A stretch of 47,067 nt of DNA, taken from UHGV virus genome UHGV-0105892; one strand, given 5' to 3'. Below are positions 2,697-45,762 of the stretch, piece by piece (positions within the stretch are counted from its first letter, which is position 1; each line of letters opens with the position of its first letter). The translations under genes were made by a program, and so were the position numbers. The stretch comes from a virus. Under the pieces are notes generated by a model. It made no database searches. It had not been told where the DNA came from and saw nothing but the letters and a program-made list of their open reading frames with translations.

Positions 2697-2722
2697 AAAG
2701 AGGCCCCTATGGGGCCTTGTTC
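2696..2722. terminator. bidirectional rho-independent terminator between the convergent TMP and homing-endonuclease genes
   Basis: Hairpin aggcccc-tat-ggggcct flanked by an A-run and a T-rich tract (approximate coordinates). Confidence 0.55.
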
Positions 2723-11090: not shown

Positions 11091-11170
11091 ATGCACCTCC
11101 TTGTGCAATATAGTAATTTACAACCATTAAGTCAACTTTTAATTACTTTATTTACGCCGCGAGCCATTTA

Positions 11171-11836: not shown

Positions 11837-11856
11837 TTCACCTCATTTACTATAAA

Positions 11857-12813: not shown

Positions 12814-12816
12814 TAT

Positions 12817-13320: not shown

Positions 13321-13362
13321 GCGACACCTCTTTGGTGTGATTGGATTGTAAGGTGGTATGAT

Positions 13363-15688: not shown

Positions 15689-15691
15689 AAC

Positions 15692-16339
15692 TCACCCTAA
15701 ATTAATAAACTCTTTATGGTTAGCAACCATGAATTCACGAATCGCCTTTTCTGCTGATTCTATGGTGTCAAACAAACCAAGATGAACCCTCTTCTTGTTT
15801 ATTGATGTCTGCGCTCTCCATTTGTTGCACCTTTTATCGAAATGCACACCTTTTACACCAGATTTATTTGTTGATTTCTTTTTCATGTTGAACATGTTTT
15901 GTTGGTGACTAGAAATCCTAAGGTTGCAAATTCTATTGTCTGATTTGTCACCATTTATATGGTCTATTTCATACCCATCTATATCTTCTCCATAAACATA
16001 AATCCATGCCAGCCTGTGAGCTTTCCTTAGTTTTCCCAGTAGTGTGATGGTAATGTACCCTGCCTTATTCTTATGCCCAACAATCTTGCCTTTACGCCAG
16101 AGTGTTCCATGTGTTTTTGCAGCTGTAAAAACGCCAGTCTCAGGGTTATATTCAAGATATTCCATTATCTGTTTTTGAGTTATGAATTGGGTTTTTCTTC
16201 TGTCTGTGCTTGCGCAATCTGCACCTCCCAGAGCAGCATTTTGCTTTTGCAGTTCCGATAAACTCATTTCCGCAAACCTCGCACTTCTTAACGGTGATAG
16301 CCATTTCTTATCCTCTATTGTAACGATTAATTGTTTCAT
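15692..16339 (-). CDS. HNH-AP2 homing endonuclease
   Basis: IDHINGDKSDNRICNLR HNH motif plus a GVKGVHFDKRCNKWRA AP2 motif. Inserted between the helicase and the primase. Confidence 0.7.
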   Translation of the reverse strand: MKQLIVTIEDKKWLSPLRSARFAEMSLSELQKQNAALGGADCASTDRRKTQFITQKQIMEYLEYNPETGVFTAAKTHGTLWRKGKIVGHKNKAGYITITLLGKLRKAHRLAWIYVYGEDIDGYEIDHINGDKSDNRICNLRISSHQQNMFNMKKKSTNKSGVKGVHFDKRCNKWRAQTSINKKRVHLGLFDTIESAEKAIREFMVANHKEFINLG

Positions 16340-16411
16340 TGCAAGTAACGATTGATTGTTTCATGTGAGTAAATTACAATGATTCTACATCATCGTCAAC
16401 AGGAAGATTTT

Positions 16412-17365
16412 ATGAGATACGACTGGAAAGACATTGAGCCAAAAATGCTCGGAAATTGGCAAGCTGCCATCATGTCTATCGTCAATGTGGATAGCAGAGT
16501 TTTCAATGGCAAGCACCAGCCATGCCCGTCATGCCTTGGCAAAGACAGGTATCGCTTTGATGACAACTTCGAAACAAAAGGCGATGGAGGAGCAATCTGC
16601 AATCAGTGCGGTTCCGGCAGCGGTATGAACTGGCTGATGAAACTTTCAGGCATGAACTTCCCTGAAGCGCTGGAGGCACTGGGAGGATTCCTGAATATGC
16701 ACCCACGCGAAAAGCTGGAGGCAATCAGGAAGGAGTTACCGAAGATAAATTACAACGATGACTTCATCACCGAGCAGGAAGTCGCAGCAATCATGTCTAA
16801 AACGACGCGCGTCGCGATGAATGAGTGGACTTTGATAAATGGTATTGGTTGCGACGTTAACGTCGTCAGAGGCAAATCTGGAGAGCTTATAGCGGTTGAG
16901 ATGGTGCGCGCTGACACAATGAAGCCGTGCAACGTGGCATTCATTGGCATGGATGGTGATTCATTCAGAACGTTTTTCCGCGCTGGATACAACAAGGACT
17001 CAGCCATAAACGGCAAACTTACACGTGGCGCGATAAGCCCAATCGGAGAAGATAACGGAAAGTTCATTTATCTGGTGTCTGATTATGCCGATGCGTGGAA
17101 ATGCCATTACTTCACTGGCGCTCATGTCTGGTGCTGCTGGTCGCCGGAAAACATGTGGGAAGTGATGCGCTCTGTTAGTGATGAGACGAAAGCACGGCTA
17201 CGCTGCATAGTTAATTATAAATTTGACGAACTGTGCTCTGCGGAAAACGCAGGGCTACCGGTGATGCTGCCTGATGATGCGGACACGATAAGAATGGCAA
17301 AGAGAATCAGGAGAAAGATTTATGACGCTGGCGAGTTGATAGAGAAAATGTCAGTTAGCAGATAA
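16412..17365 (+). CDS. DNA primase (zinc-ribbon type)
   Basis: CPSC..C..CGSG zinc-binding N-terminus. AGGAAG SD before the ATG at 16412; the ORF in the track starts at 16379. Confidence 0.55.
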   Translation: MRYDWKDIEPKMLGNWQAAIMSIVNVDSRVFNGKHQPCPSCLGKDRYRFDDNFETKGDGGAICNQCGSGSGMNWLMKLSGMNFPEALEALGGFLNMHPREKLEAIRKELPKINYNDDFITEQEVAAIMSKTTRVAMNEWTLINGIGCDVNVVRGKSGELIAVEMVRADTMKPCNVAFIGMDGDSFRTFFRAGYNKDSAINGKLTRGAISPIGEDNGKFIYLVSDYADAWKCHYFTGAHVWCCWSPENMWEVMRSVSDETKARLRCIVNYKFDELCSAENAGLPVMLPDDADTIRMAKRIRRKIYDAGELIEKMSVSR

Positions 17366-17395
17366 AAGAAAACCTCCGATTGGAGGTTTTTTATT
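17366..17395. terminator. bidirectional rho-independent terminator
   Basis: aacctcc-gattg-ggaggtt hairpin plus a T-run. Convergent junction of the primase (+) and the 17.4-19.9 kb minus-strand operon. Confidence 0.7.
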
Positions 17396-17400
17396 GTTTG

Positions 17401-17817
17401 TCAGGAATCGGTGAAAAGTGGCGGTATCGCCCCGAATGATATCTTCAATTTGTAATGTTTGACCGCGTCGTGCCACGCCTTCACGCAACGTCTTATCGCC
17501 TCGTTTCTTTCCCTTCCTTTCCCTGCGGAATGAATTTGGTGTGGCCCATCATCGCAATAGACTACGTGAGCGAAAGTGGCCTGCCATAAGTCTTCCCCTC
17601 TCTGAAAGCAAGTAACGAAAAAAGCACTATCTGGTGAAATTTCAACACGGGATATGTTTTGCAAGTTACACCCGCGAAACAGCGAGAAATCAAACAAACA
17701 GTAATCAGCCGACAAACCGAAACCAAAATGAGTTGTCGGACCGTCCAATTTTGGCAAACCTCTGAATGCATAATGAACAATTACTGAGTCCCACGGATAT
17801 TTATTGATTTTCATCAC
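17401..17817 (-). CDS. hypothetical protein, paralog A of a tandem pair
   Basis: 138 aa. Shares an ordered motif set with the next gene: F.FG..AD..F.D..F, EIS.D..F, G.DLW, DG.H.QIH..G.G.E. Confidence 0.5.
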   Translation of the reverse strand: MMKINKYPWDSVIVHYAFRGLPKLDGPTTHFGFGLSADYCLFDFSLFRGCNLQNISRVEISPDSAFFVTCFQRGEDLWQATFAHVVYCDDGPHQIHSAGKGRERNEAIRRCVKAWHDAVKHYKLKISFGAIPPLFTDS

Positions 17818-18179
17818 AATACACCCTCACTGCGTTTATGATCAATTTCATCCCGTATACGAAGCCACAATTGCCTTGTGTTTTTTACCGCCTTGTATTT
17901 TGTCTCCCCGATTCCAGACGTGTGAATCTGATACTTTTTACCAGTATGATGTCCATCTATGCCAATCAAGACGCCTCTCCAACCATTACCATGCACGTCT
18001 TTGAAGCAAAAAATGCCGCTAATAACTTCAATGCCTTCTTGAGAGTCTCCATATGGGAAAAACAGATCATGAAACCAATCACAATCAGCAGCGCCCAATG
18101 TGAAATCAACTTTACCAGGACGAGTTTCTGTTGCATAACAGTTAACAACATTTTCATTAATCACTATATTCATCGCCAA
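17814..18179 (-). CDS. hypothetical protein, paralog B of a tandem pair
   Basis: 121 aa. ATGA overlap with paralog A, and overlaps the upstream 495-aa gene by 10 nt. Confidence 0.5.
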   Translation of the reverse strand: MAMNIVINENVVNCYATETRPGKVDFTLGAADCDWFHDLFFPYGDSQEGIEVISGIFCFKDVHGNGWRGVLIGIDGHHTGKKYQIHTSGIGETKYKAVKNTRQLWLRIRDEIDHKRSEGVL

Positions 18180-19657
18180 CCCCTCATTGCAGACATATTC
18201 ATGCCAATCCCATCAACAATTTGCGTGAATTTAACGCTCATTTTCGTGCCTTCAAATTTACTTGCGTCGTTAATCCAGTAACTGCAACCTATAGCATCAA
18301 TAGCACGAGATGCCATGAGAGATTGTATTACTGGAGCAACAAGAATTTTTGCGCCATAAGAAAAATCCTCACCATTAGATCTTGCTATCGCTTCAGCAAG
18401 AGCCTTGAGGGATTTTGTTTTAACAACTCTCTGAACGAGAATAGACTGAGGCATCCTGTCATCCATCGTTCTTCCTGAAAGGATATTCTCAATTCTATTT
18501 TTAATCTCATTCCATCTTGCCATTGTTCCTAGCTCTTCCTGACTCTCGTTTACTTTTAGCATGCTCATGACGTCTGTCAGGCTTTCGCAAACAAAACAGA
18601 ATGACCACATCAGCATTTCTTCTGTAATTACACCTTTATTTCCAGCAGAAAGTGCAGTCGCAACTTTTTCAACCTGCTCGAATGAACGGGCAATTACCGC
18701 ACCAAGAGAAACATCATTTACAAGTTCCTCAAATCTGTCATCAAGTGATTCAGCCAGCGCCTGCACAACATCATTTTCGTATCTTGCAAGCTGTGGTGAT
18801 GATTTTTCCACTGCCTTCATTTTATCTATTAGAGACTGTGGTGTTTTGTGGCCATATTTGCGTAATTTCCTTGCGCGACCGTCTTTCCCTTTAATGAATA
18901 TTGCGCGACCAATCAAGCCTGTTCCGATATTTTCTGAACAAATAATACTGGACAGCTTCTCTGGTGTTGAAAAGCACATCATTGAGAATATCGGGTCTTC
19001 GATACCCTGCTGGATTGGCCACAATATTTCACGCTCAAGCTGCTGCTCGCGTCTGCGGTATTCTGACTCTACAATCCCTTTATCCTTAACTTCAGCCTTC
19101 AGCTTCTTGAGTTCCTTCTCAAGCTGCTCTTTGGCGTTAACAGCATCAAGGTCGGAAAACTTCTTCAGCCTGTCGGAATAAACAGACAGAATCTCAGAAC
19201 CAAGTTCAGCCATGTAAGCTGCGCCATTCTTCTGAGTCATTACACCAAACAATCCATGACATTCATCAATAATAAATGTCGCTACGCCATCATGATTTAT
19301 CAGTGACCGACCGATATCTTTTGATGATGCAATGCGACCAAACACATGCATACCCTTTTCGATATCTCTCGCCATGATTTTGAAATGGCTTTGTGATCTA
19401 TCCTTTCCTCCCGCTGAATCTGCGATACAGATAGTGAGGAGATTTCCCTTCATACCGCTTGGTGTTTTAATCTTGCCCTTGCTGGCAATAATCAGTTCAT
19501 GAAGAGCTGCAACAGCTCTAAGTCTTGGTTGTTCACGAACCTCACCAGCGGCAATGTCATCAGCAATTTCACCAGCAAGTCCAGGTGGTTTTGTGATGTC
19601 GTACCATCTGTCTTTGTTTATGTCAGAAGTCAGGTCATAAATGGTTTTTATCGACAT
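18170..19657 (-). CDS. large uncharacterized protein (495 aa)
   Basis: No recognizable family. Contains the stretch FIIDECHG, a GTGLIG (GxGxxG-like) segment and a coiled-coil-rich middle. The antisense ORFs across it are Ser-rich artifacts. Confidence 0.6.
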   Translation of the reverse strand: MSIKTIYDLTSDINKDRWYDITKPPGLAGEIADDIAAGEVREQPRLRAVAALHELIIASKGKIKTPSGMKGNLLTICIADSAGGKDRSQSHFKIMARDIEKGMHVFGRIASSKDIGRSLINHDGVATFIIDECHGLFGVMTQKNGAAYMAELGSEILSVYSDRLKKFSDLDAVNAKEQLEKELKKLKAEVKDKGIVESEYRRREQQLEREILWPIQQGIEDPIFSMMCFSTPEKLSSIICSENIGTGLIGRAIFIKGKDGRARKLRKYGHKTPQSLIDKMKAVEKSSPQLARYENDVVQALAESLDDRFEELVNDVSLGAVIARSFEQVEKVATALSAGNKGVITEEMLMWSFCFVCESLTDVMSMLKVNESQEELGTMARWNEIKNRIENILSGRTMDDRMPQSILVQRVVKTKSLKALAEAIARSNGEDFSYGAKILVAPVIQSLMASRAIDAIGCSYWINDASKFEGTKMSVKFTQIVDGIGMNMSAMRGWR

Positions 19658-19878
19658 TAAAAAATCCTCTTAACAAAGACTTTCCCATCACTGGCTTTAC
19701 ATGTGAATGATTTGCCTGTTGAATGCCCGTAAGCATGAGCCCGTCTCTGAATCCTTGTATTGCTGTATTCACATTCTGATATGCAAACAATGTCCCCAAT
19801 CTCCATCCTATTAAATGGCCATTTCGTTCTCTTCTTTGCATTATCCAGATCAAATTGAGTTGCCATTGTTACTTTCAT
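19657..19878 (-). CDS. hypothetical small protein (73 aa)
   Basis: First gene of the minus operon, overlapping the start of the 495-aa gene. Cys-containing. Confidence 0.45.
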   Translation of the reverse strand: MKVTMATQFDLDNAKKRTKWPFNRMEIGDIVCISECEYSNTRIQRRAHAYGHSTGKSFTCKASDGKVFVKRIF

Positions 19879-19976
19879 TCAAGCCTCCTGTTGTTATCTC
19901 ATTGCATATTGCTCTTATCTTATGTGCATGTCAATACGCCAGCAGGTAGTAACTGGCCCGACCAGTGCGTCGGGAT

Positions 19977-20180
19977 AAAAAAGTATAAAAAAGTATAAAA
20001 TTTGGATAAGAGTTTTCGCTACTAAGTATATGTATTTATTAATATTATTATTGATATATAGTGTTATTTATCCGATTTACACCGTTTTTCTCCCCCTCTT
20101 TTTTCACTCAAAAATCTATCTCTAAATTTTTATTTCTCTCTATTGTATTTCTGGATAAGTATAAATCGGATAAAACGACT
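19977..20180. promoter_or_regulatory. AT-rich repeat-containing control region (candidate origin or early regulatory region)
   Basis: Direct repeat aaaagtataa x2. 12-bp inverted repeat ttatccgattta (20068-20079) and taaatcggataa (20162-20173). Two ggataag copies give four TTATCC DnaA-box-like cores. Long T/A tracts. Confidence 0.4.
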
Positions 20181-20327
20181 TAACACCATGAATTATAATG
20201 TTATTTTCGGTATAAATGAAGAAATTGTCAGGGGTAAATGGATAGGTGCACCAGTTAAAAATCAATAACTTACAAAATTAATAACTGTGAGTGACAACTA
20301 ACATGGATGTTTATTTTAGCTATGCTA

Positions 20328-20356
20328 TTGACGTAGAATCATCATTGATGTAGATT
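20328..20356 (+). promoter_or_regulatory. sigma70-like early promoter built from two motif copies
   Basis: TTGACG, 17 bp, then TAGATT (ttgacgtagaatcatcattgatgtagatt), about 30 nt upstream of the first early gene. Confidence 0.5.
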
Positions 20357-20386: not shown

Positions 20387-20533
20387 ATGAAAATCAAAGA
20401 CCGTGAAGAATTTGAAGATGCACAGGCTATGGCGCGCATTGCAGTTGAGCGCACAAACAACAGCATTCCAGCAGAAGCATTCTGGAGCGCAGCAATGCAG
20501 GCTTTAATCTCATCGTATGGGTTGAGCAAATGA
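20387..20533 (+). CDS. early small protein (48 aa)
   Basis: GAGGGTGAAGAG SD. First of a chain of coupled tiny genes. Not in the track (below its size cutoff). Confidence 0.5.
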   Translation: MKIKDREEFEDAQAMARIAVERTNNSIPAEAFWSAAMQALISSYGLSK

Positions 20534-21920: not shown

Positions 21921-22159
21921 TGCCGCAGAAATCAAAGCAGGAGGTGTGGCAGAAGGCTCAGATCGAAGGTGTTGACCACTTCATAGCAGCCATCGCCAAA
22001 GCCTTTCCTGATGCGATTGAGGTGGTTCATGTTCAAAGCAATAATTGTAATGTTTGGTGTTATGCGAAAACTGATGTACAATCATCTCATCAATCATCAC
22101 CTCACCACCCTTTAAGCCAGCATTGCGCTGGCTTCTTTTTTATCTACGCCATGTGGTAA
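21920..22159 (+). CDS. early hypothetical protein (79 aa; 3' end may be shorter)
   Basis: ORF in the track with a GGAGG SD. A terminator hairpin lies inside its last 40 nt. Confidence 0.45.
   Translation: MPQKSKQEVWQKAQIEGVDHFIAAIAKAFPDAIEVVHVQSNNCNVWCYAKTDVQSSHQSSPHHPLSQHCAGFFFIYAMW
22113..22142 (+). terminator. rho-independent terminator ending the early gene array
   Basis: agccagc-attgc-gctggct hairpin followed by tcttttttat. Confidence 0.55.
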
Positions 22160-22198
22160 GATATGTCCTATGTGAGTTACTCAAAGGACACATATAAA

Positions 22199-22723: not shown

Positions 22724-25258
22724 ATGAGGAATCTATATATGGCACGCAAAAGACTCTCAGCACCAGCAATTGAAAAACTCGAAGAGATTATTGGCGATGG
22801 CGTGATTGATGCGCCTGAATCTGCGGTGTTCGGTGTTGTTAATACAGATAAGCAGATTGTTCGCAAACTTAAAATGACGCAAAGCGGAGTTGATGACGTT
22901 AGCGACTCTGATATTGGCGTTGATCACCTGATACCAGAAAAGCTGGAAAAGTTACTTTACCATAAGCGAAATAAAATTGTGTTTGGCGGGCGCGGATGCT
23001 TAGCCATCGGCACGATGGTGAGGATGTTTGATGGTAGCCTAAAACGCGTAGAGGATATCGTTGTTGGCGATAAGGTTATGGGTCCAGACAGTAAACCACG
23101 AAATGTTTTAAGCATATGCCGTGGGTTTGATGACATGTACACGGTTCATCAAAAATATGCTGATGACTACACCGTCAACTCAAGTCACATACTGTCATTA
23201 CGAAAGGTCCCATCTGCTATCAGTGATGAGACGAAAACACCTGATGGTAAAAGAATTTATCGTTATTACCCCAATGACCCGGAAATACTGAATATCGGTG
23301 TTTCAGAATATTTGTCGCGCGCAACTTCCAAAAAGTTCCGCCATGTCTTTAAAGGGTGGCGAACAGGATGGGATTTTAATGACCAAAGCGTCCCAGTTGA
23401 CCCGTACTTTCTTGGTTTATGGTTAGGTGATGGTTCATCTCGTGGTGTTGAAGTGTGCACGCCTGATCCAGAGATAGTTGACTACATTCACAACGTGGCA
23501 AGCAAATACGGGATGCAGGTAAAGGTTCGTGATGATGATAGATGTCCGGTATATGCGATAACCAATGGTAGAGCTGCTGGTATGGGGAAAAACACCAACC
23601 CGTTACTAACTAAAATGCAGCAGCTTGGGGTGATTAATAATAAACACATACCTGACTGCTATATCAAAAACAGCAGGCAGGTAAGACTTCAGATTCTGGC
23701 TGGGCTATTGGATACTGATTCGCATTATGACCAGAAAAAGAAAAGCTATTCTTTCACGTCAATAAATAAAGAAATGGCCTTCTCTTTGATGGATGTGGCA
23801 AGATCGCTTGGCTTCAAGTCAAGCATAATCAAAAAGACTGATGTCACCTTTGAATATAAAGGTGAGAAAAGAATATACGAAAAGGATGTGTGGGAGGTGT
23901 TCGTTAGTGGTGACCTTCATACAATCCCATGCCGAGTAAAAAGGAAGATAGCAGAGAGAACCAAGTCAACTCGCGGGAGGATGACTGAGGTGTCATTGTC
24001 TTATGCCGGGCATGGTGAATACGCTGGGTTCACTCTTGATGGCGATCATCTTTTCTTGCTTGCTGATGGCACGGTTACACACAACAGCGGAAAAACAAGA
24101 ACAGTAACTACAATACTTACGGAGCGTGCACGATTTAAGCCTGACAGGATAGCTTGCTTCCGTGAGATTCAGCAGTCCATTGAAGATAGCTCATATCAGG
24201 AACTGAAGGACGAAATTGATCGCAAGGGAGAAACGAAAGAGTTTCGCGTCATCAACAACGAAATAACGCACAAGGTAACGAAAGCAAAGTTCCGCTTTAA
24301 AGGGCTGTATCGCAACCAGACGACCGTTAAAGGCTTCGCTGGCATTACAGTAGCTTGGGTCGAGGAGGCGGAAAACGTCAGCCAGACAAGCTGGGAAATC
24401 CTCACCCCAACAGTCCGCGCTGAAGGGTCAGAGATATGGGTGACTTTCAACCCAAATAAAGAGCATGACCCGACGTGGAAAATATGGGTTGAGCCTTTTT
24501 ATAATAAATTGCGCGAAAATGGCGGCATCTATGAGGATGATGAAAACCTGATTATCGAGTGTAATTACTCAGACAATCCGTGGTTCTGGGATACTCCGCT
24601 CCCAAGCCAAATGCAGCGCATGAAAGAAACCGACTTCGACCGCTATCAATGGGTGTGGGGTGGGCGCTTTAATAAGCGTAATGATGAGCAGGTATTTGGC
24701 GGTAAGTGGCGCGTTGCTGATTTCGAGGTTAAGCCGGAATGGCATGGGCCTTACTTTGGCATCGACTTTGGATTCTCGCAGGACGCAACGGCGATGGTTG
24801 AGGTTTACATTGAGAAACTTCCTGATGACCGCCGCAACCTTTACGTCGCGCGCGAATACGGCCGTGTAGGCCTTGAGATTACCGACACACCTACAGCGAT
24901 GGAGCAATCATTCCCACTCTCCAGGAAGGCAAGATGGTATGGGGACTGCTCTCGGCCAGAAACAATCAGTCACATCAAACGCGCAGGATTTGATATCCAT
25001 CCATGCAATAAGTGGCCCGGGAGCGTGGAGGAGGGTGTAACCTGGCTCAGGGGTTGTGACGGCATCATCATTCATGACCGCTGCACACAGACTCAGGAAG
25101 AGTTCACTATGTACAGTTACAAGGTGGACAAGCTGACGGGTAACGTGCTCACAAATATTGTGGATGCGTGGAACCACTTCATTGACGCAATCAGATATGC
25201 ATGCAACGATCACATCGTACAGCGCGGCTCTGGATGGATTAGAAGGAGCAGGAGATAA
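22724..25258 (+). CDS. terminase large subunit interrupted by an intein
   Basis: The Walker A motif is split as VFGGRG / intein / SGKTRT. Walker B VAWVEEA follows, and the C-terminal nuclease half is intact. Exteins total 481 aa. Confidence 0.8.
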   Translation: MRNLYMARKRLSAPAIEKLEEIIGDGVIDAPESAVFGVVNTDKQIVRKLKMTQSGVDDVSDSDIGVDHLIPEKLEKLLYHKRNKIVFGGRGCLAIGTMVRMFDGSLKRVEDIVVGDKVMGPDSKPRNVLSICRGFDDMYTVHQKYADDYTVNSSHILSLRKVPSAISDETKTPDGKRIYRYYPNDPEILNIGVSEYLSRATSKKFRHVFKGWRTGWDFNDQSVPVDPYFLGLWLGDGSSRGVEVCTPDPEIVDYIHNVASKYGMQVKVRDDDRCPVYAITNGRAAGMGKNTNPLLTKMQQLGVINNKHIPDCYIKNSRQVRLQILAGLLDTDSHYDQKKKSYSFTSINKEMAFSLMDVARSLGFKSSIIKKTDVTFEYKGEKRIYEKDVWEVFVSGDLHTIPCRVKRKIAERTKSTRGRMTEVSLSYAGHGEYAGFTLDGDHLFLLADGTVTHNSGKTRTVTTILTERARFKPDRIACFREIQQSIEDSSYQELKDEIDRKGETKEFRVINNEITHKVTKAKFRFKGLYRNQTTVKGFAGITVAWVEEAENVSQTSWEILTPTVRAEGSEIWVTFNPNKEHDPTWKIWVEPFYNKLRENGGIYEDDENLIIECNYSDNPWFWDTPLPSQMQRMKETDFDRYQWVWGGRFNKRNDEQVFGGKWRVADFEVKPEWHGPYFGIDFGFSQDATAMVEVYIEKLPDDRRNLYVAREYGRVGLEITDTPTAMEQSFPLSRKARWYGDCSRPETISHIKRAGFDIHPCNKWPGSVEEGVTWLRGCDGIIIHDRCTQTQEEFTMYSYKVDKLTGNVLTNIVDAWNHFIDAIRYACNDHIVQRGSGWIRRSRR
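22997..24085 (+). other. intein (363 aa) with LAGLIDADG homing-endonuclease domain inside TerL
   Basis: Starts at Cys (CLAIGT) and ends ..VTHN followed by Ser. Two LAGLIDADG-like blocks: YFLGLWLGDGSS and LAGLLDTDSHY. Confidence 0.75.
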
Positions 25259-25517: not shown

Positions 25518-25566
25518 TGATTACAATCTACATCAACCACGAATCCACGTCAACATTTATAATAAA

Positions 25567-25857: not shown

Positions 25858-25884
25858 AAGATTTCTCCGAGAGGTTTCATTTTA

Positions 25885-25913
25885 ATCTACGCCATGCTAG
25901 AATCTACGTCAAG
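25885..25913 (-). promoter_or_regulatory. sigma70-like promoter (minus direction) made of two motif copies
   Basis: Read on the minus strand: TTGACG, 17 bp, then TAGATT (the reverse complements of aatctacgtcaa and aatctacgccat). Confidence 0.45.
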
Positions 25914-26410: not shown

Positions 26411-27805
26411 ATGTCAAAGTTAGAGGCGGTAAACGCCTATATTCAGCAGCGAGTGGCGAACAATAACAGGCTCATCGAGCGGCAGCGCCGGGAGTTTGGC
26501 GGGAAGAACCTTGACCAAAAGCACGACAGGCTTTGGTCTGAGTGTGGCTATAGCCAGGAGATTACAGCAGCAGATTTCCGCTTCGCCTATGAGCGATATC
26601 CGTTGGCGGCAGCGGCGGTTAACCTTGTGCTCAATAAGTCTTGGCAAGGTATGCCAACTGTCCTTGAGCGCGATGCTGATGATGAGGCAACATCTCCATG
26701 GGAAGTGTCGGTAAACAAAATCCTCAAGAAGTCAGCCCCGTTCATTAAGGATGCCGACAAGCGCAACCTGATCAACCGTTACTCAGGCCTGCTACTTCAG
26801 ATAAATGATGGCGGCCAATGGCATGACCCTGTTAATGTCACCAAAACAGGCAGAATTAAAGATGCGGCAATCGTTAGGCTAATCCCATGCTGGGAGGAGC
26901 AGTTGCGCGTTTCTCAGTGGCAAAATGACGAGTCAAAGGAGGACTACGGACAGCCTTTGATGTTCGAGTACCAGGAAAGCGCCGTTGATGATTTTGATAA
27001 CGATGGCAAGCCAAAGAGATCGGTTCAAATCCATCCAGACCGCATTATTACTCTCGCAGAGGGTAGTTTCGATGGAAGCATATTCTCTGGCATTCCTCTA
27101 CTTCGAGCTGGATTTAACGCCTTAATAGACTGCGCCAAGATTACAGGCAGCTCGGCAGAAGGGCTCCTCAAGAACTCATCGCGGCAATTGTCGATATCCT
27201 TCAACAAGGACAATGTATCTGTACAATCCCTTGCGCAGCAAATGTCTGTCACAGTGGAAGAACTGCCTGATATCCTTAATGAAGATATAGAGAGAATAAA
27301 CAGCGGGATTGACGCGGCAATGTTTGGGTTTGGCAATGATGTTGATGTGCTGTCAGTCAACATGAACGACCCTGAGCCGTTCATGTACGTGGCAGCCAGT
27401 CAGTTTGCTTCATCCGTAAACATTCCCCTTAACTCATTGCTTGGTAGTCGCAGCGGCGTCCTGGCATCTGCAAACGATGAGCAGTCACTTGCTATGATGG
27501 CAATGCAGCGCCGTGATGGATGGCTTGACTACCTGATTTCCGTGTTCGTCGACCGCTTGATTAAATTTGGCATCATCGACAAAGCGCCTGAAAATGGGTA
27601 TTACTGCAAGTGGAGTGATTTGCTGGAGCCTACGCAGAACGATAAGGCGGAATTGATTGTCAAGCTGGCGCAGGCGTGCCAGAGTGCGGCAAATGCAGGA
27701 CTAGACCCAATCCTGACGGCAGATGAAATTCGCTCATTCCTTGGTCTTGAACCAATAAAATTGCCAGGCGGCATGAGTGAGGATGACCCATCACAAGAGG
27801 AGTGA
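26411..27805 (+). CDS. portal protein
   Basis: About 465 aa, at the position after TerL and before the Mu-F-like head protein. The ATG at 26411 (MSKLEA..) lies downstream of the hairpin; the ORF in the track starts at 26387, inside the hairpin. Confidence 0.55.
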
Positions 27806-27899
27806 CGATATAATAGATGTGCAGCTAGGGGGCGCCCGAAAAGATGAACGTAGACATCCTGCTGCATCCTCAATCTACGAACCTACTACGAGGTTAATC

Positions 27900-28805
27900 A
27901 TGGCAAAAAGACTCACCACGGAAGACTTCATTTCTCGCGCCAGGCAAAAACATGGCGATAAATACATTTATGATAAGTCTGTGTTTTCTGGAACGAAAAA
28001 ACAAGTAACGATAACCTGCAAAAAACATGGCGATTTTACTCAAAAAGCGGAATGCCATCTCGCTGGTTACGGCTGCGAGCTTTGCGCCAGAGATGTTCGG
28101 GCAAGAAAGTTAATGACATCAAATGATGAATTTATCTCTAAAGCTAAAATGGTTCATGGTGATAAATACTCATATGACAAGTGCATATACTCAGGAAATC
28201 ACAGGAAGGTGTTGGTAACATGTCAAAAGCATGGTGACTTTTCACAACAACCGGCAAACCATCTATCAGGAAATGGCTGTCCATCATGCAAGCTTGAGCT
28301 CCTGTCTGAAAAGTTCAGCGATAATAAAGCCTCATTCATAACAAAAGCAAGAGCAATTCACGGAAGAAGATACTCATACGAGAAAGTTAATTACATGAAA
28401 AGTTCAATAAAAGTGTGTATTACGTGTCATATCCATGGCGATTTCTATCAGACACCTAACTCGCACTTGTGGGGGTCCGGTTGTAATAAATGCACAACTT
28501 ATGGGTTTAAACCTGCAAGTGTATATGTGGCTGAAATGGATGGGGCGTGCAAGATAGGTGTAAGCAACAACACTGAAAGAAGAATGAAAAGCATATCAAA
28601 ATCAGCAGGGAAAACTGTCGCTGTGGTTGCTGAGTACTCATTTCCATCATGGGCTGACGCGAGAAAGGCTGAATCAATGATACACAAAGAAATAAAACAT
28701 AAAAATGCAGGGTTAACCGGATTTGATGGGGCGAGAGAATTTTTCAATATATCAACCCATGAGGCGGCCGACTTGGTTTTAAAGCATGGAGGAAGAGTGA
28801 AATGA
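27900..28805 (+). CDS. free-standing homing endonuclease: three Zn-ribbon repeats plus a GIY-YIG/T5orf172-like C-terminus
   Basis: Repeats KYIYDKS..TCKKHGDF.Q....HL.G.GC..C occur three times. C-terminus reads SVYVAEMDGACKIGVSNN..RR. GAGGT SD at 27900; the ORF in the track starts at 27777. Confidence 0.6.
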   Translation: MAKRLTTEDFISRARQKHGDKYIYDKSVFSGTKKQVTITCKKHGDFTQKAECHLAGYGCELCARDVRARKLMTSNDEFISKAKMVHGDKYSYDKCIYSGNHRKVLVTCQKHGDFSQQPANHLSGNGCPSCKLELLSEKFSDNKASFITKARAIHGRRYSYEKVNYMKSSIKVCITCHIHGDFYQTPNSHLWGSGCNKCTTYGFKPASVYVAEMDGACKIGVSNNTERRMKSISKSAGKTVAVVAEYSFPSWADARKAESMIHKEIKHKNAGLTGFDGAREFFNISTHEAADLVLKHGGRVK

Positions 28806-29749
28806 AAATTCTCAGACTTAACGCCCGCCTGCCACAGCCAAGGGTGTCGCAAAGCCTGACTGACCCGTTAGGATCAGCGCCACGGCTTAATAAGATGGAT
28901 AAGGATATCACCACCAGGTACAAGCGCATTCGCACAGCTCTGCTTGACCTGTTCCGCAGCATTCCAGTAAGTGAAAGAAATGCTGAATCAAGTGGTAATT
29001 ATTATTATGATTTCAGCGCCTCGCGTGCTGCGTCTTTTATGGATGAACTGCAACGACTGCTTGATCAGTTTTTGCTTGAGGGTGATACATTCGATCATGG
29101 GCAGATGTGGGCGAATATTTATATTGGCGACGCATGGGCCGCCGGAACTCAAAAAGCAAACTCAGAACTGTCAAGCCTGTCAAGTCTCTACGCTGAGCAG
29201 CGACCCATGGCATCCATCCTGTATAGCGAGCCATATCTTGACCGTCTGCAACTGGCGTACACTCAGGGGTACTCTGACTGGTCTGGGCTAAGTGACTACA
29301 CCAGGCGGCAGGTTGCATCGGTTGTAATGGAGGGCATTGCTCGTGGTGCTAACCCTCGTGATATTGAAAGCGATATCGTCAAACGCGCCGACGTATCGCA
29401 GAGTTACGCTCGCTCTATAGCGCAGACCGAGATAACTAGCGTGCTGCGTGAGTCAAATCGCAAGGAAGTGATTGAAGCGCGCGAGACGCTTGGCATTGAA
29501 ACCATAATGCTCTGGCAGTCAGCGCTAATGAAAACCACCCGCGCCACTCATGCCGCGCGTCATGGGAAATATTACACCCCGGAAGAGATTGATGAGTTCT
29601 ACAGCGAAGGCGCAAACCGCCGTAACTGTCACTGCGCACAGACTCCAGCGCTGGTAATGGATGGCAAGCCTGTGATACTTGAGAAGACGCAGGAAAGGCT
29701 CGATAAGCAGCGTGAAGCATGGCAGGATACACACAAGAAAGCCGCCTGA
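28802..29749 (+). CDS. minor head protein (Mu gpF / SPP1 gp7-like head morphogenesis protein)
   Basis: 315 aa following the portal, with an ..ETIMLWQSALMKTTRATHAARHGKYY.. region. Confidence 0.5.
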   Translation: MKILRLNARLPQPRVSQSLTDPLGSAPRLNKMDKDITTRYKRIRTALLDLFRSIPVSERNAESSGNYYYDFSASRAASFMDELQRLLDQFLLEGDTFDHGQMWANIYIGDAWAAGTQKANSELSSLSSLYAEQRPMASILYSEPYLDRLQLAYTQGYSDWSGLSDYTRRQVASVVMEGIARGANPRDIESDIVKRADVSQSYARSIAQTEITSVLRESNRKEVIEARETLGIETIMLWQSALMKTTRATHAARHGKYYTPEEIDEFYSEGANRRNCHCAQTPALVMDGKPVILEKTQERLDKQREAWQDTHKKAA

Positions 29750-29768
29750 CGGCGGATTAATTTTATCT
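29740..29768. terminator. hairpin terminator at the convergent junction
   Basis: ccgcc-tgac-ggcgg followed by attaattttatc. Confidence 0.45.
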
Positions 29769-31098: not shown

Positions 31099-31213
31099 TT
31101 TTTACTCTCCTGTGTTTGTGTATCTACATCATCGCTTACGATTCAATCTACGTCAAGTATTTTTATGATATAATGACACATGGGTTAGGAAGTTATCGGT
31201 TGAGGAAATCATT

Positions 31214-31942
31214 ATGTCAAAAAAAATGTCAAACGAAGACTTTGTGGCATCAGCCAGGGCAGCACACGGGAGTAGATTCAGGTACGAAAAGTGCGTTTAT
31301 GACGGGAAAAAGAAAAAATTAATAATAATTTGTAGGATGCACGGGGCTTTCCTCACTCATCCAGATACCCACTTAAAGGGAAAACATGGAGGATGTGATA
31401 AGTGTGCAAGGATTCAGCATGGCAGGAGATCATCAGAAAGGTGCAGGAGCAAGGTGAGAGACCTTGATATTTCCGATATCGTTAAATATGAACCTGAAAC
31501 GGGTGATTTTACTTGGGTTAAGAACACAACAATTCGAGACTCAATAGGAAGGAAGGTTGGTAGCAAAACTAAGAATGGTTATATTGAATGTCAGATTCAG
31601 GGAGAGAGGTACTTACTACATAGACTGGCTTGGTTTATGCACTATGGATCATGGCCGCCAGGTGAGATAGATCACATTAATTGCATCAAAACAGATAACA
31701 GAATTAAAAATCTTAGGCTTGCCACTTTTTGTGAAAATCAACAAAACAAGGGCCTTTCAGAAAGCAATAAGTCAGGCGTCAAAGGCGTCTGCTGGGACAA
31801 AAGGTTATCAAAATGGAAAGCCAGGGTCTACGCATCAAGGGTGTTGGTGGCAGAGAGGGTATTTGACGACCTGAATGAAGCCGCAGAGTGGATAAAAAAT
31901 GTTAGAATGAGACACCACAAAGAATTTTCCCGGGAGGCTTAG
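31214..31942 (+). CDS. HNH-AP2 homing endonuclease with one N-terminal Zn-ribbon repeat
   Basis: N-terminus R.RYEKCVY.GKKKKLIIICRMHG.F...P..HL.G..GGC.KC is one copy of the repeat. Then IDHIN..K.DNRI.NLR HNH and GVKGVCWDKRLSKW AP2 motifs. Confidence 0.7.
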   Translation: MSKKMSNEDFVASARAAHGSRFRYEKCVYDGKKKKLIIICRMHGAFLTHPDTHLKGKHGGCDKCARIQHGRRSSERCRSKVRDLDISDIVKYEPETGDFTWVKNTTIRDSIGRKVGSKTKNGYIECQIQGERYLLHRLAWFMHYGSWPPGEIDHINCIKTDNRIKNLRLATFCENQQNKGLSESNKSGVKGVCWDKRLSKWKARVYASRVLVAERVFDDLNEAAEWIKNVRMRHHKEFSREA

Positions 31943-34158: not shown

Positions 34159-34254
34159 TGTCGCTCTCCTGTGAAAACCATCTTGACTAATCTACGTCAA
34201 TTAGTCAATACTAGATGGTGTAGATTATATCACAGTGATGAGGAGTGGTGTGGA

Positions 34255-34745: not shown

Positions 34746-34978
34746 AACCAATGATGAATGATGAGAAATTACTAGAGTGTCCGTTTTGCGGTAGTGAAAA
34801 TTCCATGCGGAACAAGGATGGGCAATGGCATTTTGTAGTATGCCAGGATTGCGGCTGCCGTACTGATGACTGGATGGTTGCGGCGACAGCAATCATTAAA
34901 TGGAATACCAGAAATGGCCACCTCTATACCGCTGACGACTACAAGCAAGATGCAATGGAGCGCGCAAATGGACTTTAA
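34742..34978 (+). CDS. Lar-family restriction-alleviation-like zinc-ribbon protein
   Basis: MKPMM..LLECPFCGSE......W.VVCQDCGC; the CPFCG zinc ribbon is characteristic of the Lar family. ATGA overlap with the upstream gene. Confidence 0.5.
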   Translation: MKPMMNDEKLLECPFCGSENSMRNKDGQWHFVVCQDCGCRTDDWMVAATAIIKWNTRNGHLYTADDYKQDAMERANGL

Positions 34979-35438
34979 AACACAAATACTCACGGTGATA
35001 GAGCGCTGCGGCGGCGCAACCAATGCCATGATACGCAAGCAGACTGGCATGACAAACCGAGTCAGCGTTACTGGCTATCTGATTGAGCTGGAGGGTATGG
35101 GATTTATTATTAAAGAGGAAAGCGTCAGCCATGGCAGGCGCTGCTTTAAATATTTCCTCAATCCCGATAATACTGCGCTTGACATGGCAATTCAGACGTA
35201 CCTTGAGGCTAATCCTGGACGCAAGAGTAAGCAGATAGCGGAGGCTGTCGGCGTCAATTACACCATCCTCAAGGCACGCATGCGCTATCTGGCAAGCATT
35301 GGTCAGGTTGACCGTGAAATGCTTCCTGGCGGAGCGTGGAAATATTACTGGCAGGAGATCATCCCGTTTGGCATGAGCCGTGACAGGATGATGTTTGAAA
35401 AGTTGCTTGCCGGGGCGCGCCAGTCATGTGGGCGGTAA
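34968..35438 (+). CDS. winged-helix DNA-binding protein (two wHTH-like segments)
   Basis: ILTVIERCGGATNAMIRKQTG..VTGYLIELEGMGFI and a second segment KQIAEAVGVNYTILKARMRYLASIGQV. The internal ATG overlaps the Lar stop. Confidence 0.45.
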   Translation: MDFKTQILTVIERCGGATNAMIRKQTGMTNRVSVTGYLIELEGMGFIIKEESVSHGRRCFKYFLNPDNTALDMAIQTYLEANPGRKSKQIAEAVGVNYTILKARMRYLASIGQVDREMLPGGAWKYYWQEIIPFGMSRDRMMFEKLLAGARQSCGR

Positions 35439-36105: not shown

Positions 36106-36228
36106 ATGCCAATCATACTGATATCATTCTTTGCTACTCTTTTCGCTTTTACCGCATCTCCGCTTTACCTTCTTGCGTCCGTTTCGTGGTGCTTTATTGC
36201 TGCTAGATATAAAAAAGGCGCCACATGA
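36106..36228 (+). CDS. small membrane peptide (40 aa)
   Basis: Strong AGGAGG SD. Hydrophobic IILISFFATLFAFTASPLYLLASVSWCFIAA. Confidence 0.5.
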   Translation: MPIILISFFATLFAFTASPLYLLASVSWCFIAARYKKGAT

Positions 36229-36240
36229 CGCCTTTTATTT
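36211..36240. terminator. bidirectional terminator hairpin
   Basis: aaggcg-ccacatga-cgcctt followed by ttattt, convergent with the homing endonuclease gene. Confidence 0.5.
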
Positions 36241-36242
36241 GT

Positions 36243-37652
36243 TTATCTACTCCACTCTATTCTCATCTGTCCGCTGTCCCATATCCTGCTAACACCCTCA
36301 GATTCGTACCATTCTGTTTGGGTCATACCTTTCGGCGCCTTGTTCCATTTCTGTCTTGACTCTACATTACTGCCATTAACTATGCCAAATCCTGGCTTTA
36401 TGCTAACTGGTTTAAATCCTGCCGCTATGTATGACTTGCCAGTAAACAAATCAAGATCAACATAACTAAAGCACCTGTCAAACCCGATGATTGAAGAGCA
36501 GTTTTTTAGCATCTTGGTAAGCCCGCCTCTAACGTTGCACTTCGACGCAAACCTCACAAGCTCTGTTGCGCCTGATTTTATCGTGAAAGTCATAACTGAA
36601 ACTAAATCATCACCATTGAACAGCCCGAAATGCCTGCTGGCGTTCTTTCCACCCATCACGTGATGTGCATCAAGAAAATCCCTAGAATCACGACTTGATA
36701 CTTCTTTAACGACGCATTCTCTTGCGTTTATGTTTTCATTAGGCCTACAGCCCATGGCATTCATTATTATTAATTTGACCAAATCTTCTTTATCTCTCCA
36801 GATATCGCTTCTTATGCTTATTAATCTCATTCCAGACGCTTCAACCCTCTCCCTCTTCATTCTGTGATAAAGCCTATCTTTCCCGACCTTCTCCGAGTGC
36901 CAGTACACGTCGTTTACCTCTATGGCTAATGATTTGGATTTTGAGACTATATCAAGTTCATATGGCGCTATCGTCGCTCTATCCCTACTGATTGCATATG
37001 GGTCTAGTGACTTAACAAATGCAAGGATATCGGCTTCTGCGTTTGACATTACTCCAGCGCACGATGGGCACCCATTCCCAGCAAGATGATTTGCTGCACC
37101 CTGAGTAAACTCCCCATGCACAGGGCATAAGATATTAATCTTGCCTCGGGAACCAGTAAACCCATTCGGTGAATACTCATATTTATCTCCATGGATGCAT
37201 TTCGCATCATCAACAAAATCACCGAACATTTTGATCTTTGCTTTCCTCGAACTCTCATCCCCGCACCTTGGGCATCCATTACCACGTTTCAGGTGAATGT
37301 AGGCTCCTTGCTCAAACCACCCATGGATCGGGCATCCGATTGTTACCTTTTCCCGAGAAAACGTTTCAAAAAAAACCTTGCTATAGTCATATTTTCCTCT
37401 GTGAACAGCGGAAGCCATTGATTTAAAATCATCGACAGAAATGACGCCCTTTTGGCACTTTGCACATCCCTGACCATGAAGGTGTTTGGATGGCTTTTGC
37501 CAGAATTCCCCATGCTTTTTGCATACTATTTTCATTGGTGAGTGGCAGCCATGGAAGGTATAAAAATCATACTCATACGTATCGCCATGAACGCTACGCA
37601 GCTTTTCTTTGAGTTCATCAATCGTCATCTTCTTCGGCATGATATAATCCAC
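36243..37652 (-). CDS. free-standing homing endonuclease: four Zn-ribbon repeats plus a C-terminal nuclease domain
   Basis: Four HG.F.Q.P..HL.G.GC..C repeats. C-terminal half contains LAIEVNDVYWHS (Vsr/DUF559-like PD-(D/E)XK core). Confidence 0.55.
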   Translation of the reverse strand: MDYIMPKKMTIDELKEKLRSVHGDTYEYDFYTFHGCHSPMKIVCKKHGEFWQKPSKHLHGQGCAKCQKGVISVDDFKSMASAVHRGKYDYSKVFFETFSREKVTIGCPIHGWFEQGAYIHLKRGNGCPRCGDESSRKAKIKMFGDFVDDAKCIHGDKYEYSPNGFTGSRGKINILCPVHGEFTQGAANHLAGNGCPSCAGVMSNAEADILAFVKSLDPYAISRDRATIAPYELDIVSKSKSLAIEVNDVYWHSEKVGKDRLYHRMKRERVEASGMRLISIRSDIWRDKEDLVKLIIMNAMGCRPNENINARECVVKEVSSRDSRDFLDAHHVMGGKNASRHFGLFNGDDLVSVMTFTIKSGATELVRFASKCNVRGGLTKMLKNCSSIIGFDRCFSYVDLDLFTGKSYIAAGFKPVSIKPGFGIVNGSNVESRQKWNKAPKGMTQTEWYESEGVSRIWDSGQMRIEWSR

Positions 37653-40842: not shown

Positions 40843-41016
40843 TTATTTTTTGTTCTTGATATAATGCTGCTTTGCAATATACAGCATCTCATCAAATGAT
40901 TTTCCGGTAACGCTTCGGCATTGTCGATAGTGTTGTAACGCAGCCTCTATGGCCGCATTGTCGATGCCTGGCAGTTTTTCGCGCAGGTTTTTCTCTATGA
41001 ATTGTTCGGGGTTCAT
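40843..41016 (-). CDS. small protein (57 aa), last gene of the minus mini-operon
   Basis: TAATG overlap with the upstream gene and a GGAGAG SD; the ORF in the track extends to 41043. Confidence 0.45.
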   Translation of the reverse strand: MNPEQFIEKNLREKLPGIDNAAIEAALQHYRQCRSVTGKSFDEMLYIAKQHYIKNKK

Positions 41017-41213
41017 TACCAACTCTCCACCACGTTTGCGCATTCATCATAAAATAAGAAATGCCTTGTTTTTTCTTCGCAACGCTTCATTTCAAATGCG
41101 ATTATGTCCTCCTGATAGTGAATTTTCTCCACCTGGCGAGCCACGCCGTCTCGCATTAGGATGTGATCGCCTTCTTTTATGTTTTTTGCAACAGTGCCAA
41201 TTGTAATCATCAC
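41016..41213 (-). CDS. small protein (65 aa)
   Basis: ATGA overlap with the upstream gene. Confidence 0.5.
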   Translation of the reverse strand: MMITIGTVAKNIKEGDHILMRDGVARQVEKIHYQEDIIAFEMKRCEEKTRHFLFYDECANVVESW

Positions 41214-41428
41214 AACTTCTCCAGAATCGCCAGAACTTCATTCAGGTCCGCAACAGGCAGCCGCAGAAACTCCTCGGTTTCCTCTGCGACGTGTCCCTTT
41301 GCCACAACCATGTGGTCTGCTTCTTTCAGCAACTCAATCAGCCGGTCGACAGGGACCTGATAACCTTTGTTGACCACGATTCCGCCGCGAGTTTCTTTGT
41401 CTGAGTAAATTTTTCCGAGAGATGTCAT
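41210..41428 (-). CDS. small protein (72 aa)
   Basis: GAGGGAAAG SD before the ATG at 41428. The start at 41464 in the track is a TTG. Confidence 0.45.
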   Translation of the reverse strand: MTSLGKIYSDKETRGGIVVNKGYQVPVDRLIELLKEADHMVVAKGHVAEETEEFLRLPVADLNEVLAILEKL

Positions 41429-41435
41429 CTTTCCC

Positions 41436-41552
41436 TCACTTTGATAAACAGATTGCACTGGCAATGGCGAATCCGATAACGATTAACGCCAGCTTGATTT
41501 TGAACTTATCCCACGCCTTCAGGTCTTCTTTTCGTATTTCGTGGCGGATCAT
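41436..41552 (-). CDS. small membrane peptide (38 aa)
   Basis: ATGA overlap with the upstream gene. Hydrophobic KLALIVIGFAIASAICL. Confidence 0.4.
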   Translation of the reverse strand: MIRHEIRKEDLKAWDKFKIKLALIVIGFAIASAICLSK

Positions 41553-41847: not shown

Positions 41848-41872
41848 CACCTCTAACATTTATTGTTGTTTC

Positions 41873-41910
41873 TACGTCATCACTATAGCGACACCCTCAA
41901 TCTACGTCAA
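41873..41910 (-). promoter_or_regulatory. sigma70-like promoter for the minus mini-operon
   Basis: Minus strand reads TTGACG, then tagattgagggtgtcgc (17 bp), then TATAGT. A second motif copy lies just downstream. Confidence 0.5.
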
Positions 41911-42071
41911 CACTTTATGATAAAATTAAACCAACAACACTCAACCCGCGCTGTTCCGTCCTGAAAAACGCAAGGCGGCGAAATTGGATATAGTAATCGG
42001 CGTTATCGTCATGGCGCTTTCGCTGGTTCAGGTGTACAGATGCTGGAAGTTCATCATTCGGAGAATAATTA

Positions 42072-44166: not shown

Positions 44167-44195
44167 AATCTACACCACCAATCAAAACCTGTCAA
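44167..44195 (-). promoter_or_regulatory. sigma70 promoter for the tRNA pair
   Basis: Minus strand reads TTGACA, 17 bp, then TAGATT (the motif copy). The predicted start is about 10 nt before the tRNA-Arg 5' end. Confidence 0.5.
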
Positions 44196-44240
44196 CATGA
44201 TATAATGCGATTGTTTAGCTAAACAGAGAGGATTCTAAAC

Positions 44241-44997: not shown

Positions 44998-45026
44998 GAA
45001 AACCCCCGGAAGGGGGTTTATTTTTC
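44998..45026 (+). terminator. rho-independent terminator after the major tail gene
   Basis: aaccccc-ggaa-gggggtt followed by tattttt. Confidence 0.7.
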
Positions 45027-45695: not shown

Positions 45696-45725
45696 AATCT
45701 ACGTCAGTCTTGCGTCTCCTGTCAA
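45696..45725 (-). promoter_or_regulatory. sigma70-like promoter for the minus trio
   Basis: Minus strand reads TTGACA, 18 bp, then TAGATT (the motif copy). Confidence 0.4.
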
Positions 45726-45762
45726 TGGTATAATTACGTCATTATGAAAACAGGATTTAGAC

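Follow-up and report, generated by a model that had tools for sequence, protein, structure and literature searches.

The early genes of the phage genome UHGV-0105892 are preceded by a recurrent 12-bp sequence, nTGRYGTAGATT (best form TTGACGTAGATT), which is conserved as an intact unit among related phages. The window analyzed here, 47,067 bp in length, is the complete, circularly permuted genome of a Klebsiella siphophage, with the tape-measure gene divided between both window ends. An initial annotation, made from the sequence alone, had proposed that the two halves of this 12-mer act as -35 and -10 promoter hexamers. These roles are very probably right, and it is highly likely that the motif sites are sigma70 early promoters. 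With moderate confidence, we further propose that the early promoter element doubles as an operator for a putative DNA-binding factor. The feature itself is real and lineage-specific, and the reading first given to it is largely correct.

Recurrence and placement of the 12-mer

The recurrence noted initially stands clearly above chance. The exact form AATCTACGTCAA occurs four times (25901, 31145, 34189 and 41899), a count that a shuffled-genome control does not reproduce (0.00 in 100 dinucleotide shuffles), and allowing up to two mismatches gives 11 matches where 3.2 are expected. The core TGRYGTAGATT is present 10 times, against an expectation of 0.07-0.09 (0.065 in separate Markov shuffles). 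All 10 lie in non-coding DNA, which makes up 6.1% of the window on our own gene map; the chance of this is 0.061^10, or ~7e-13. The remaining near-matches in coding DNA (12579 and 4804) are no more than chance predicts.

With degenerate forms included there are 16 copies in 10 regions, namely nine intergenic regions and position 22141, spread from 16.3 to 45.7 kb. Read in the TTGACGTAGATT orientation, they lie on the plus strand at 20328, 20345 and 34215, and on the minus strand at 16382, 22141, 25525, 25542, 25884, 25901, 31121, 31145, 34189, 41869, 41899, 44167 and 45696. The initial annotation had listed all of these to within 1 nt, 34215 as inverted, except for two copies that it overlooked (25542, AATCCACGTCAA; 16382, ATTCTACATCAT). 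One further position on its list, 27871, falls away, as it matches only AATCTACG and lies inside coding DNA. Placement almost exclusively in divergent regions was borne out: eight of the ten divergent intergenic regions carry the motif, and the two motif-free ones flank singleton homing-endonuclease genes at 2707-3585 (T5orf172 type) and 36243-37652 (DUF723). When this genome and its relatives were searched with orientation scored, the relatives gave the same consensus, and 15 of the 16 copies here were directed at the adjacent gene, 22141 being the exception. The 12-mer is not palindromic and is self-complementary only in its central ACGT. We considered replication iterons and rejected them, because the copies are dispersed over the genome and not clustered at a single origin beside an initiator gene.

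Predicted promoter architecture

A consensus promoter scan returned seven sites that use a 12-mer half (20328, 25553, 25912, 31156, 41910, 44195 and 45725). Every one of them has TTGACG or TTGACA in the -35 position, and in 7/7 TAGATT, TATAGT or GATGAT follows 17-18 bp downstream. The scan thus recovered the promoters reconstructed earlier, at 20328-20356 on the plus strand and at 25912-25884, 41910-41882 and 44195-44167 on the minus strand. The last of these, TTGACA-17-TAGATT, had been described as positioned to drive the transfer RNA (tRNA) genes, and it does lie 17 nt upstream of tRNA-Arg and tRNA-Met (44149-43993). When flanks were pooled from seven genomes, a T-T-G-a/t-c/t signal appeared exactly 17 bp before TAGATT, and the end of the proximal copy was found mostly 22-34 nt before a start codon with a Shine-Dalgarno sequence. 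A+T content at -55 to -46 is 80%, compared with 53% genome-wide. By composition this region is UP-element-like, and opposite-strand -10 boxes probably account for part of the signal.

These observations suggest how the 12-mer could serve as the signature element of early promoters in this clade. Host sigma70 polymerase would take the TTGACG of the distal copy as its -35 and the TAGATT of the proximal copy as its -10, so that two copies placed 17 bp apart would make a complete promoter. Single copies would pair instead with an ordinary TTGACA or TATAGT. Placement, 17-18 bp spacing, orientation and distance to the start codon all agree with the proposed hexamer roles; what the hexamers alone leave unexplained is the conservation of bases outside them. 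Extra tandem sigma70 promoters do not fill this gap, as no partner hexamers were seen by eye at 17 bp from a distal TAGATT or a proximal TTGATG. Nor is the TG of the 12-mer a known extended -10 element, because the invariant TG of TGRYGTAGATT sits at -17/-16 from TAGATT and not at -15/-14.

Conservation of the 12-mer as a unit

To look beyond this genome, we searched 1.73 Mb of related DNA with TTGACG-N17-TAGATT as the sole requirement and recovered 47 distinct promoters, where ~0.2 are expected by chance. In these promoters the consensus is T-R-G-A-W-W at spacer positions 7-12 and T-G-R-Y-G at positions 19-23, with ~1-2 bits per position, whereas the linker between the copies (5-6 bp, positions 13-18) carries ~0-0.6 bits and is nearly random. 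The six bases that follow a TTGACA -35 are not TAGATT-like, and the bases that precede a TATAGT -10 are not TGRYG. TTGACG therefore always travels with TAGATT, and TAGATT always with TGRYG, which makes the 12-mer a conserved unit. Its conservation exceeds what polymerase needs, since the unused halves are kept and the linker is not. That the linker is randomized between genera while the unused halves are not argues for selection over recent copying.

Copies are also present where they have no hexamer role. The 41869 copy, at ~-5 to +7 of its promoter, is present in all genera. Others fall in the spacer or at +1 of opposite-strand promoters (16382 here; 2760 and 2782 in Salmonella phage VSt472), and inverted pairs occur at 34189/34215 here and at 6843/6871 in VSt472. 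Salmonella and E. coli phages carry arrays of 4-5 copies spaced 17, 22, 23 and 33 bp, in which some inverted copies lie in the spacer and at +1 of an opposite promoter. Closely related genomes are informative only on the variable linkers and flanks, as the regions are mostly too alike for footprinting.

The motif is shared by Klebsiella, Salmonella, E. coli and Shigella phage genera, with 15-22 copies per genome at corresponding positions in all six relatives compared. Among 2.9 million IMG/VR contigs, the 17-bp paired form was found in 81 stretches, all of them on contigs of ~44-50 kb or fragments thereof, consistent with this clade. A literature search using motif strings, genus names and papers on related phages found no description of the motif; the only phage paper containing AATCTACGTCA has it inside a cloning primer. 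Sites for the host factors IHF, DnaA, MetJ, NarL, PhoB, EvgA and matS were also considered, and none fits in a comparison of consensuses made by eye and not against a database.

Probable late promoters on the opposite strand

A second promoter class, interleaved with the 12-mer sites, had gone unrecognized in the initial annotation. The extended -10 sequence TGnTAnAAT occurs 19 times where 8.3 are expected. The plus strand holds 17 of these, and ~10 lie just before late genes (3689, 7510, 25895, 26365, 31166, 31900, 37640, 41918, 44198 and 45726). No usable -35 was found at these ~10 sites. This suggests that the late virion and lysis clusters have an extended -10 promoter class that is independent of a -35.

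These plus-strand sequences stand very close to the minus-strand early sites. TGcTAGAAT (25895-25903) lies inside the 25884/25901 early pair. TGaTATAAT of the lysis cluster (31166..31174) begins 9 nt beyond the 12-mer, with its TATAAT hexamer 12 nt beyond, and TGaTAAAAT of the head-tail genes (41918..41926; genes from 42072 onward) begins 7 nt beyond, with its TAAAAT hexamer 10 nt beyond. The order AATCTACGTCAA, 7-9 nt, TGnTAnAAT at the lysis and head-tail clusters is kept across genera. At the tail genes TGTCAA is followed directly by TGnTATAAT; here TGaTATAAT (44198..44206), which precedes the major tail gene (44241), stands immediately behind the minus-strand -35. TGgTATAAT (45726-45734) abuts the early promoter at 45725-45696. 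Across the seven genomes, 31 of 99 motif clusters have an opposite-strand extended -10 no more than 48 nt behind them, against ~6% expected. Because -35-dependent early promoters and extended -10 late promoters are interlocked in this way, polymerase or a bound factor at one should influence the other.

A promoter element that may also be an operator

Selection on all 12 bp, where six bases would suffice, together with copies that are inverted, arrayed or placed at +1 and in spacers, most likely means that the element is an operator as well. The pattern of copies outside hexamer roles is the one expected where an operator is overlaid on promoters: 16 dispersed, non-palindromic copies overlap a -35, a -10, a spacer or a +1. 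In the operator role, the 12-mer would be the asymmetric site of a clade-specific DNA-binding factor that governs all early units together. Polymerase or such a factor bound at the 12-mer region should also affect late-gene expression, because the early promoters are back-to-back with the extended -10 late promoters or overlap them. The initial suggestion of either a modular promoter element or the site of a phage regulator fits the data on both counts, with the proviso that promoter hexamers are insufficient alone.

The initial annotation had pointed to a winged-helix protein as a possible regulator, and its gene (34968..35438, plus strand) encodes the only predicted DNA-binding regulator among the ~47 open reading frames (ORFs) scanned. 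It matches PHROG 1687 ('MarR family', E = 7e-50) and, weakly, Pfam HTH_24. An AlphaFold model built on a 19-sequence alignment (pLDDT 79; the single-sequence model, at pLDDT 50, was unusable) has two winged-helix domains in tandem. Its best Foldseek matches in the PDB are the tandem winged-helix proteins TFIIIC tauB, RPC62, SelB and ScpB and MarR-type regulators, at TM-scores of only 0.36-0.40, so the likeness is at the level of domains; a PDB sequence search with the winged-helix profile gave only marginal matches (E of at least 0.06). The gene is restricted to the clade (151 phage records) and present in every genome checked, and its operon begins at the inverted 12-mer pair 34189/34215. An asymmetric 12-bp site could be read by one chain carrying two winged helices. 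We nevertheless regard this protein as a weak and tentative candidate for the 12-mer binder. Its identity between the Klebsiella and the Salmonella/E. coli clades, in which the motif is essentially the same, is only 35-38%, and across them the sole invariant part is a portion of the second recognition helix and wing (Y98, K102, R104, R116 and W124). Two other candidates were tried and set aside: the 48-aa protein encoded at 20387-20533, the first gene after the strongest paired promoter, is absent from the motif-bearing phages BUCT541 and VLCpiS13f, and a ParB/KorB-like gene is reduced to a remnant (41225-41353) in this genome.

It is tempting to speculate that host sigma70 reads either half of the 12-mer while a monomeric winged-helix protein (34968-35438) reads all 12 bp, shutting off all early units and resetting access to the late promoters. 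This specific version is rather unlikely. If true, the dual reading would make the 12-mer part of a switch acting genome-wide, present at six or more divergent regions and conserved in at least four phage genera.

Several observations weigh against the promoter-operator reading. A motif that stays invariant while the only predicted regulator diverges fits a conserved host polymerase or host protein better than a fast-evolving phage protein. Spacings between copies of 10, 17, 21-24 and 29-33 bp, direct and inverted, suggest no single binding geometry. At several single-copy sites (34189, 34215 and 16382) a good -35 is missing at the 17-bp distance. Some 12-mers overlap the -10 or +1 of opposite late-type promoters (25895 and 34232), and one repressor would then silence both classes, which complicates a simple early-to-late switch.

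Alternative explanations

The conserved unit might be a sigma70 promoter module and nothing else, a fused -35/-10 reused by 17-bp phasing with no dedicated factor. Its extra conservation would then come from non-hexamer polymerase contacts, from constraint by opposite-strand promoters or from repeated copying of cassettes. We consider this possible though unlikely. Every hexamer placement fits sigma70, and in two cases (TGcTAGAATCTAC at 25895, TGaTATAATCTAC at 34232) a -10 on the other strand makes use of the AAT end of a 12-mer. The motif is moreover invariant across host genera whose polymerases are nearly identical, while the phage proteins diverge, and this invariance keeps an explanation by polymerase alone, or by a host factor, alive. 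The bases outside the hexamers fit such a module poorly. With its conserved TG at -17/-16, TGRYG does not supply an extended -10, and TAGATT at -29 to -24 matches no known polymerase contact; to our knowledge none reads that sequence at those positions. A hexamer role is also lacking for copies that are inverted, placed at +1 or in spacers, or found upstream in arrays, and repeated copying sits badly with linkers that are randomized between genera when unused halves are not.

Alternatively, the proximal 12-mer may be the core element of promoters that depend on a phage-redirected polymerase or an activator, and may set the start with or without a -35, in a logic comparable to that of T4 MotA boxes or of the T4 late promoters that have only a -10. 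In its favor, the distance from the proximal copy to the start codon is nearly constant (22-34 nt) regardless of the sequence upstream, and sites such as 34189, 34215 and 16382 have no usable -35 at 17 bp. We think this improbable all the same: at most sites a consensus -35 is present at 17-18 bp and unmodified host polymerase looks fully able to use them, early genes need to be expressed before any phage factor exists, and a scan of ~47 ORFs detected no domain resembling sigma, MotA or AsiA. The promoter blocks could also be short homology linkers for the exchange of early cassettes, conserved by recombination and not by a factor. The clade is strongly mosaic, with replication genes 93-99% identical to those of VSt472 and KFS-SE2 beside Klebsiella-like virion genes, and the motif stands at the edges of small opposite-strand cassettes, each with its own terminator. 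Even so, 12 bp is very short for homologous exchange, and strict orientation, 17-bp phasing and a fixed start-codon distance would be left unexplained; this account is distinctly improbable, and being compatible with a promoter-operator it is not a true alternative to it. Least probable by our estimate, and very doubtful, is a global silencer of the ParB/KorB type acting at the 12-mers. Proteins of the KorB type control many dispersed promoters, and in most relatives the gene for a ParB/KorB-like protein lies a short way downstream of the promoter that is orthologous to 41910. This genome, left with only the C-terminal remnant, nevertheless keeps an intact motif, four copies of it perfect, and the site is not palindromic, unlike parS and OB.

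Comparison with known systems

The early sigma70 promoters of T5 and the A1-A3 promoters of T7 are the closest likeness for the promoter side of the element. They share the TTGAC(G/A) -35, the 17-18 bp spacer, the TAnnnT -10, the AT-rich upstream sequence and the position close before early genes, and they are readable by unmodified host polymerase. The present case differs from them in that one 12-bp unit fuses both hexamers, is reused by 17-bp phasing and conserves its unused half.

For the operator side, the C1 operators of phage P1 are asymmetric 17-bp sites that are dispersed over the genome and overlap promoters. Like the 12-mer, they exist in many non-palindromic copies, single or paired, over sigma70 -35 and -10 elements, and the operator sequence itself contains promoter-like hexamers. 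Unlike them, the site here is 12 bp long and of unrelated sequence, and its cognate repressor is putative. The p4 switch of phi29 (A2b/A2c-A3) likewise has divergent early and late promoters close enough that occupancy of one affects the other; in phi29 a known regulator acts at known sites within a single region, whereas the arrangement here recurs at six or more regions with a hypothetical regulator.

Two promoter classes per genome are also found in T4, where middle promoters combine a MotA box at -30 with a sigma70 -10, and with the extended -10 promoters of the Thermus P23-45 type. As there, one class depends on a -35 (early) and the other has a TGn-extended -10 without one (late in this genome). 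Unlike a MotA box, the 12-mer includes a good -35 and does not replace it, and no homologues of MotA, AsiA or gp39 were detected among the ORFs scanned. In the PeSL cassettes of T4-type phages, as in the present arrangement, small groups of early genes in a mosaic genome are bordered by conserved regulatory blocks; the 12-mer differs in lacking a stem-loop component, and a role in recombination is without support here.

The 12-mer would be of a known kind, the phage promoter-operator repeat. Fused -35/-10, 17-bp phasing and whole-unit conservation make a neat case of two putative readers on one sequence, and not a new principle. Phages of the clade, which comprises BUCT541/pIS4-A Klebsiella phages, Skatevirus, Macdonaldcampvirus and Buchananvirus, are isolated widely for use in phage therapy and food biocontrol, and our literature search found no published account of the clade's transcription program. 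All early transcription units bear the 12-mer, among them the cassettes for anti-restriction, Lar, superinfection immunity and tRNAs, and together with the extended -10 sites the motif offers a testable transcription map. It should also yield compact, portable promoter parts useful for annotating and engineering this clade, and provides a defined DNA bait for seeking a regulator.

Individual sites

Paired copies with a 17-bp period occur at three places, each reading TTGACG-17-TAGATT. On the plus strand, TTGACGTAGAAT and TTGATGTAGATT (20328..20356) lie 30 nt before the ATG at 20387. On the minus strand, TTGACGTGGATT / TTGATGTAGATT (25525..25553), with AT-rich sequence upstream, forms the predicted promoter of the NinD-like gene 25517-25287, and TTGACGTAGATT / ATGGCGTAGATT (25884..25912) stands 26 nt before the gene 25857-25567. 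At 31121..31156 (minus) two direct copies, TTGACGTAGATT and ATGATGTAGATA, are 24 bp apart and lie 22 nt before the gene 31098-30808; the consensus-scan match at this two-copy site is TTGACG-17-GATGAT (31156-31128).

Elsewhere a copy is joined to an ordinary hexamer. In the region 41869..41910 (minus), TTGACGTAGATT (41899-41910) would supply the -35 and TATAGT (41882-41887) the -10 of TTGACG-17-TATAGT, and the second copy, ATGACGTAGAAA (41869-41880), is the one that spans ~-5 to +7. The -10 region of the tRNA promoter (44167..44195, minus) is the copy GTGGTGTAGATT. At 45696..45725 (minus), TTGACA-18-TAGATT includes the copy CTGACGTAGATT and lies 30 nt before a small gene starting at 45665.

The back-to-back inverted pair consists of a leftward copy (34189-34200), 30 nt from the start codon at 34158, and a rightward one (34215-34226), 28 nt from that at 34255. 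Enclosing the left copy is a palindrome, TTGACTAAT-N8-ATTAGTCAA (34180-34208), that heads the winged-helix operon and whose TTGAC...GTCAA arms are retained in E1, VSt472 and Sa179lw; it could represent two face-to-face -35 boxes or a separate operator for a dimeric protein.

The copy ATGATGTAGAAT (16382..16393, minus), upstream of the replication/recombination operon that starts at 16339, is directly preceded by TTGACG (16394-16399). It sits between this TTGACG and a weak -10, covers ~-2 to +10 of the opposite primase promoter TTGATT-17-TACAAT, and is kept in E1 and VSt472. The degenerate copy ATGGCGTAGATA (22141..22152, minus) lies just past a terminator (22114-22134), inverted relative to the flanking plus-strand genes. 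It abuts TGgTAAGAT on the plus strand (22154-22162), and its counterpart in BUCT541 has the opposite orientation.

The genome and its relatives

The closest relatives of this genome are phages BUCT541, YX3973 and KpV2811 and Aeromonas phage pIS4-A; more distant ones, at ~77-79% DNA identity in virion genes, are Salmonella E1 (Macdonaldcampvirus), VSt472 and KFS-SE2 (Skatevirus) and E. coli Sa179lw (Buchananvirus). Short cassettes and a replication module, all on the minus strand, break up the virion and lysis clusters of the plus strand. The cassettes hold NinD-like, PNK-like and other small genes of no assigned role as well as the two tRNAs. Lar is encoded within the plus-strand operon beginning at 34255; in relatives, the cassettes at corresponding places carry annotated genes for anti-restriction and superinfection immunity. 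No integrase or C1 homologue was seen, and phages of this clade appear virulent.

Mosaicism is strong in 10087-19878, where the helicase, the primase, a 495-aa primase-like protein and their neighbors share 93-99% protein identity with Salmonella VSt472 and KFS-SE2. The virion genes resemble those of Klebsiella phages most, and BUCT541, otherwise closest in them, has these replication genes at 60-71% identity or lacks them. Relative to BUCT541, the minus-strand cassette at 40843-41552 has lost most of the ParB/KorB-like gene, a cytosine methylase and endonuclease VII, keeping the C-terminal ParB remnant.

A 450-bp AT-rich non-coding stretch (19879-20327) separates the primase-like operon from the first paired early promoter; it has three copies of AAGTATAAA, GGATAA-type boxes and a 16-nt inverted repeat, TTTATCCGATTTACAC / GTATAAATCGGATAAA, whose arms are 76 nt apart. 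This region may be a replication origin or packaging region, and its repeats differ from, and are unrelated to, the 12-mer.

The large terminase ORF (22724-25258, plus) encodes 844 aa, where ~475 is usual, and bears an intein, in which residues 92-177 form a Hint domain and residues ~309-375 a LAGLIDADG homing endonuclease; the Terminase_3 domains begin at residue 454. Free-standing genes of homing-endonuclease type (T5orf172/GIY-YIG-like, HNH_3-AP2, HNH and DUF723) are unusually many, at 2707-3585, 10590-11108, 12817-13320, 15692-16339 and 36243-37652 on the minus strand and at 27777-28805 and 31214-31942 on the plus strand. At convergent junctions between late clusters and early cassettes, hairpins score as terminators on both strands (29742-29755, 36213-36236 and 45000-45019), and these look like bidirectional terminators that insulate the cassettes.

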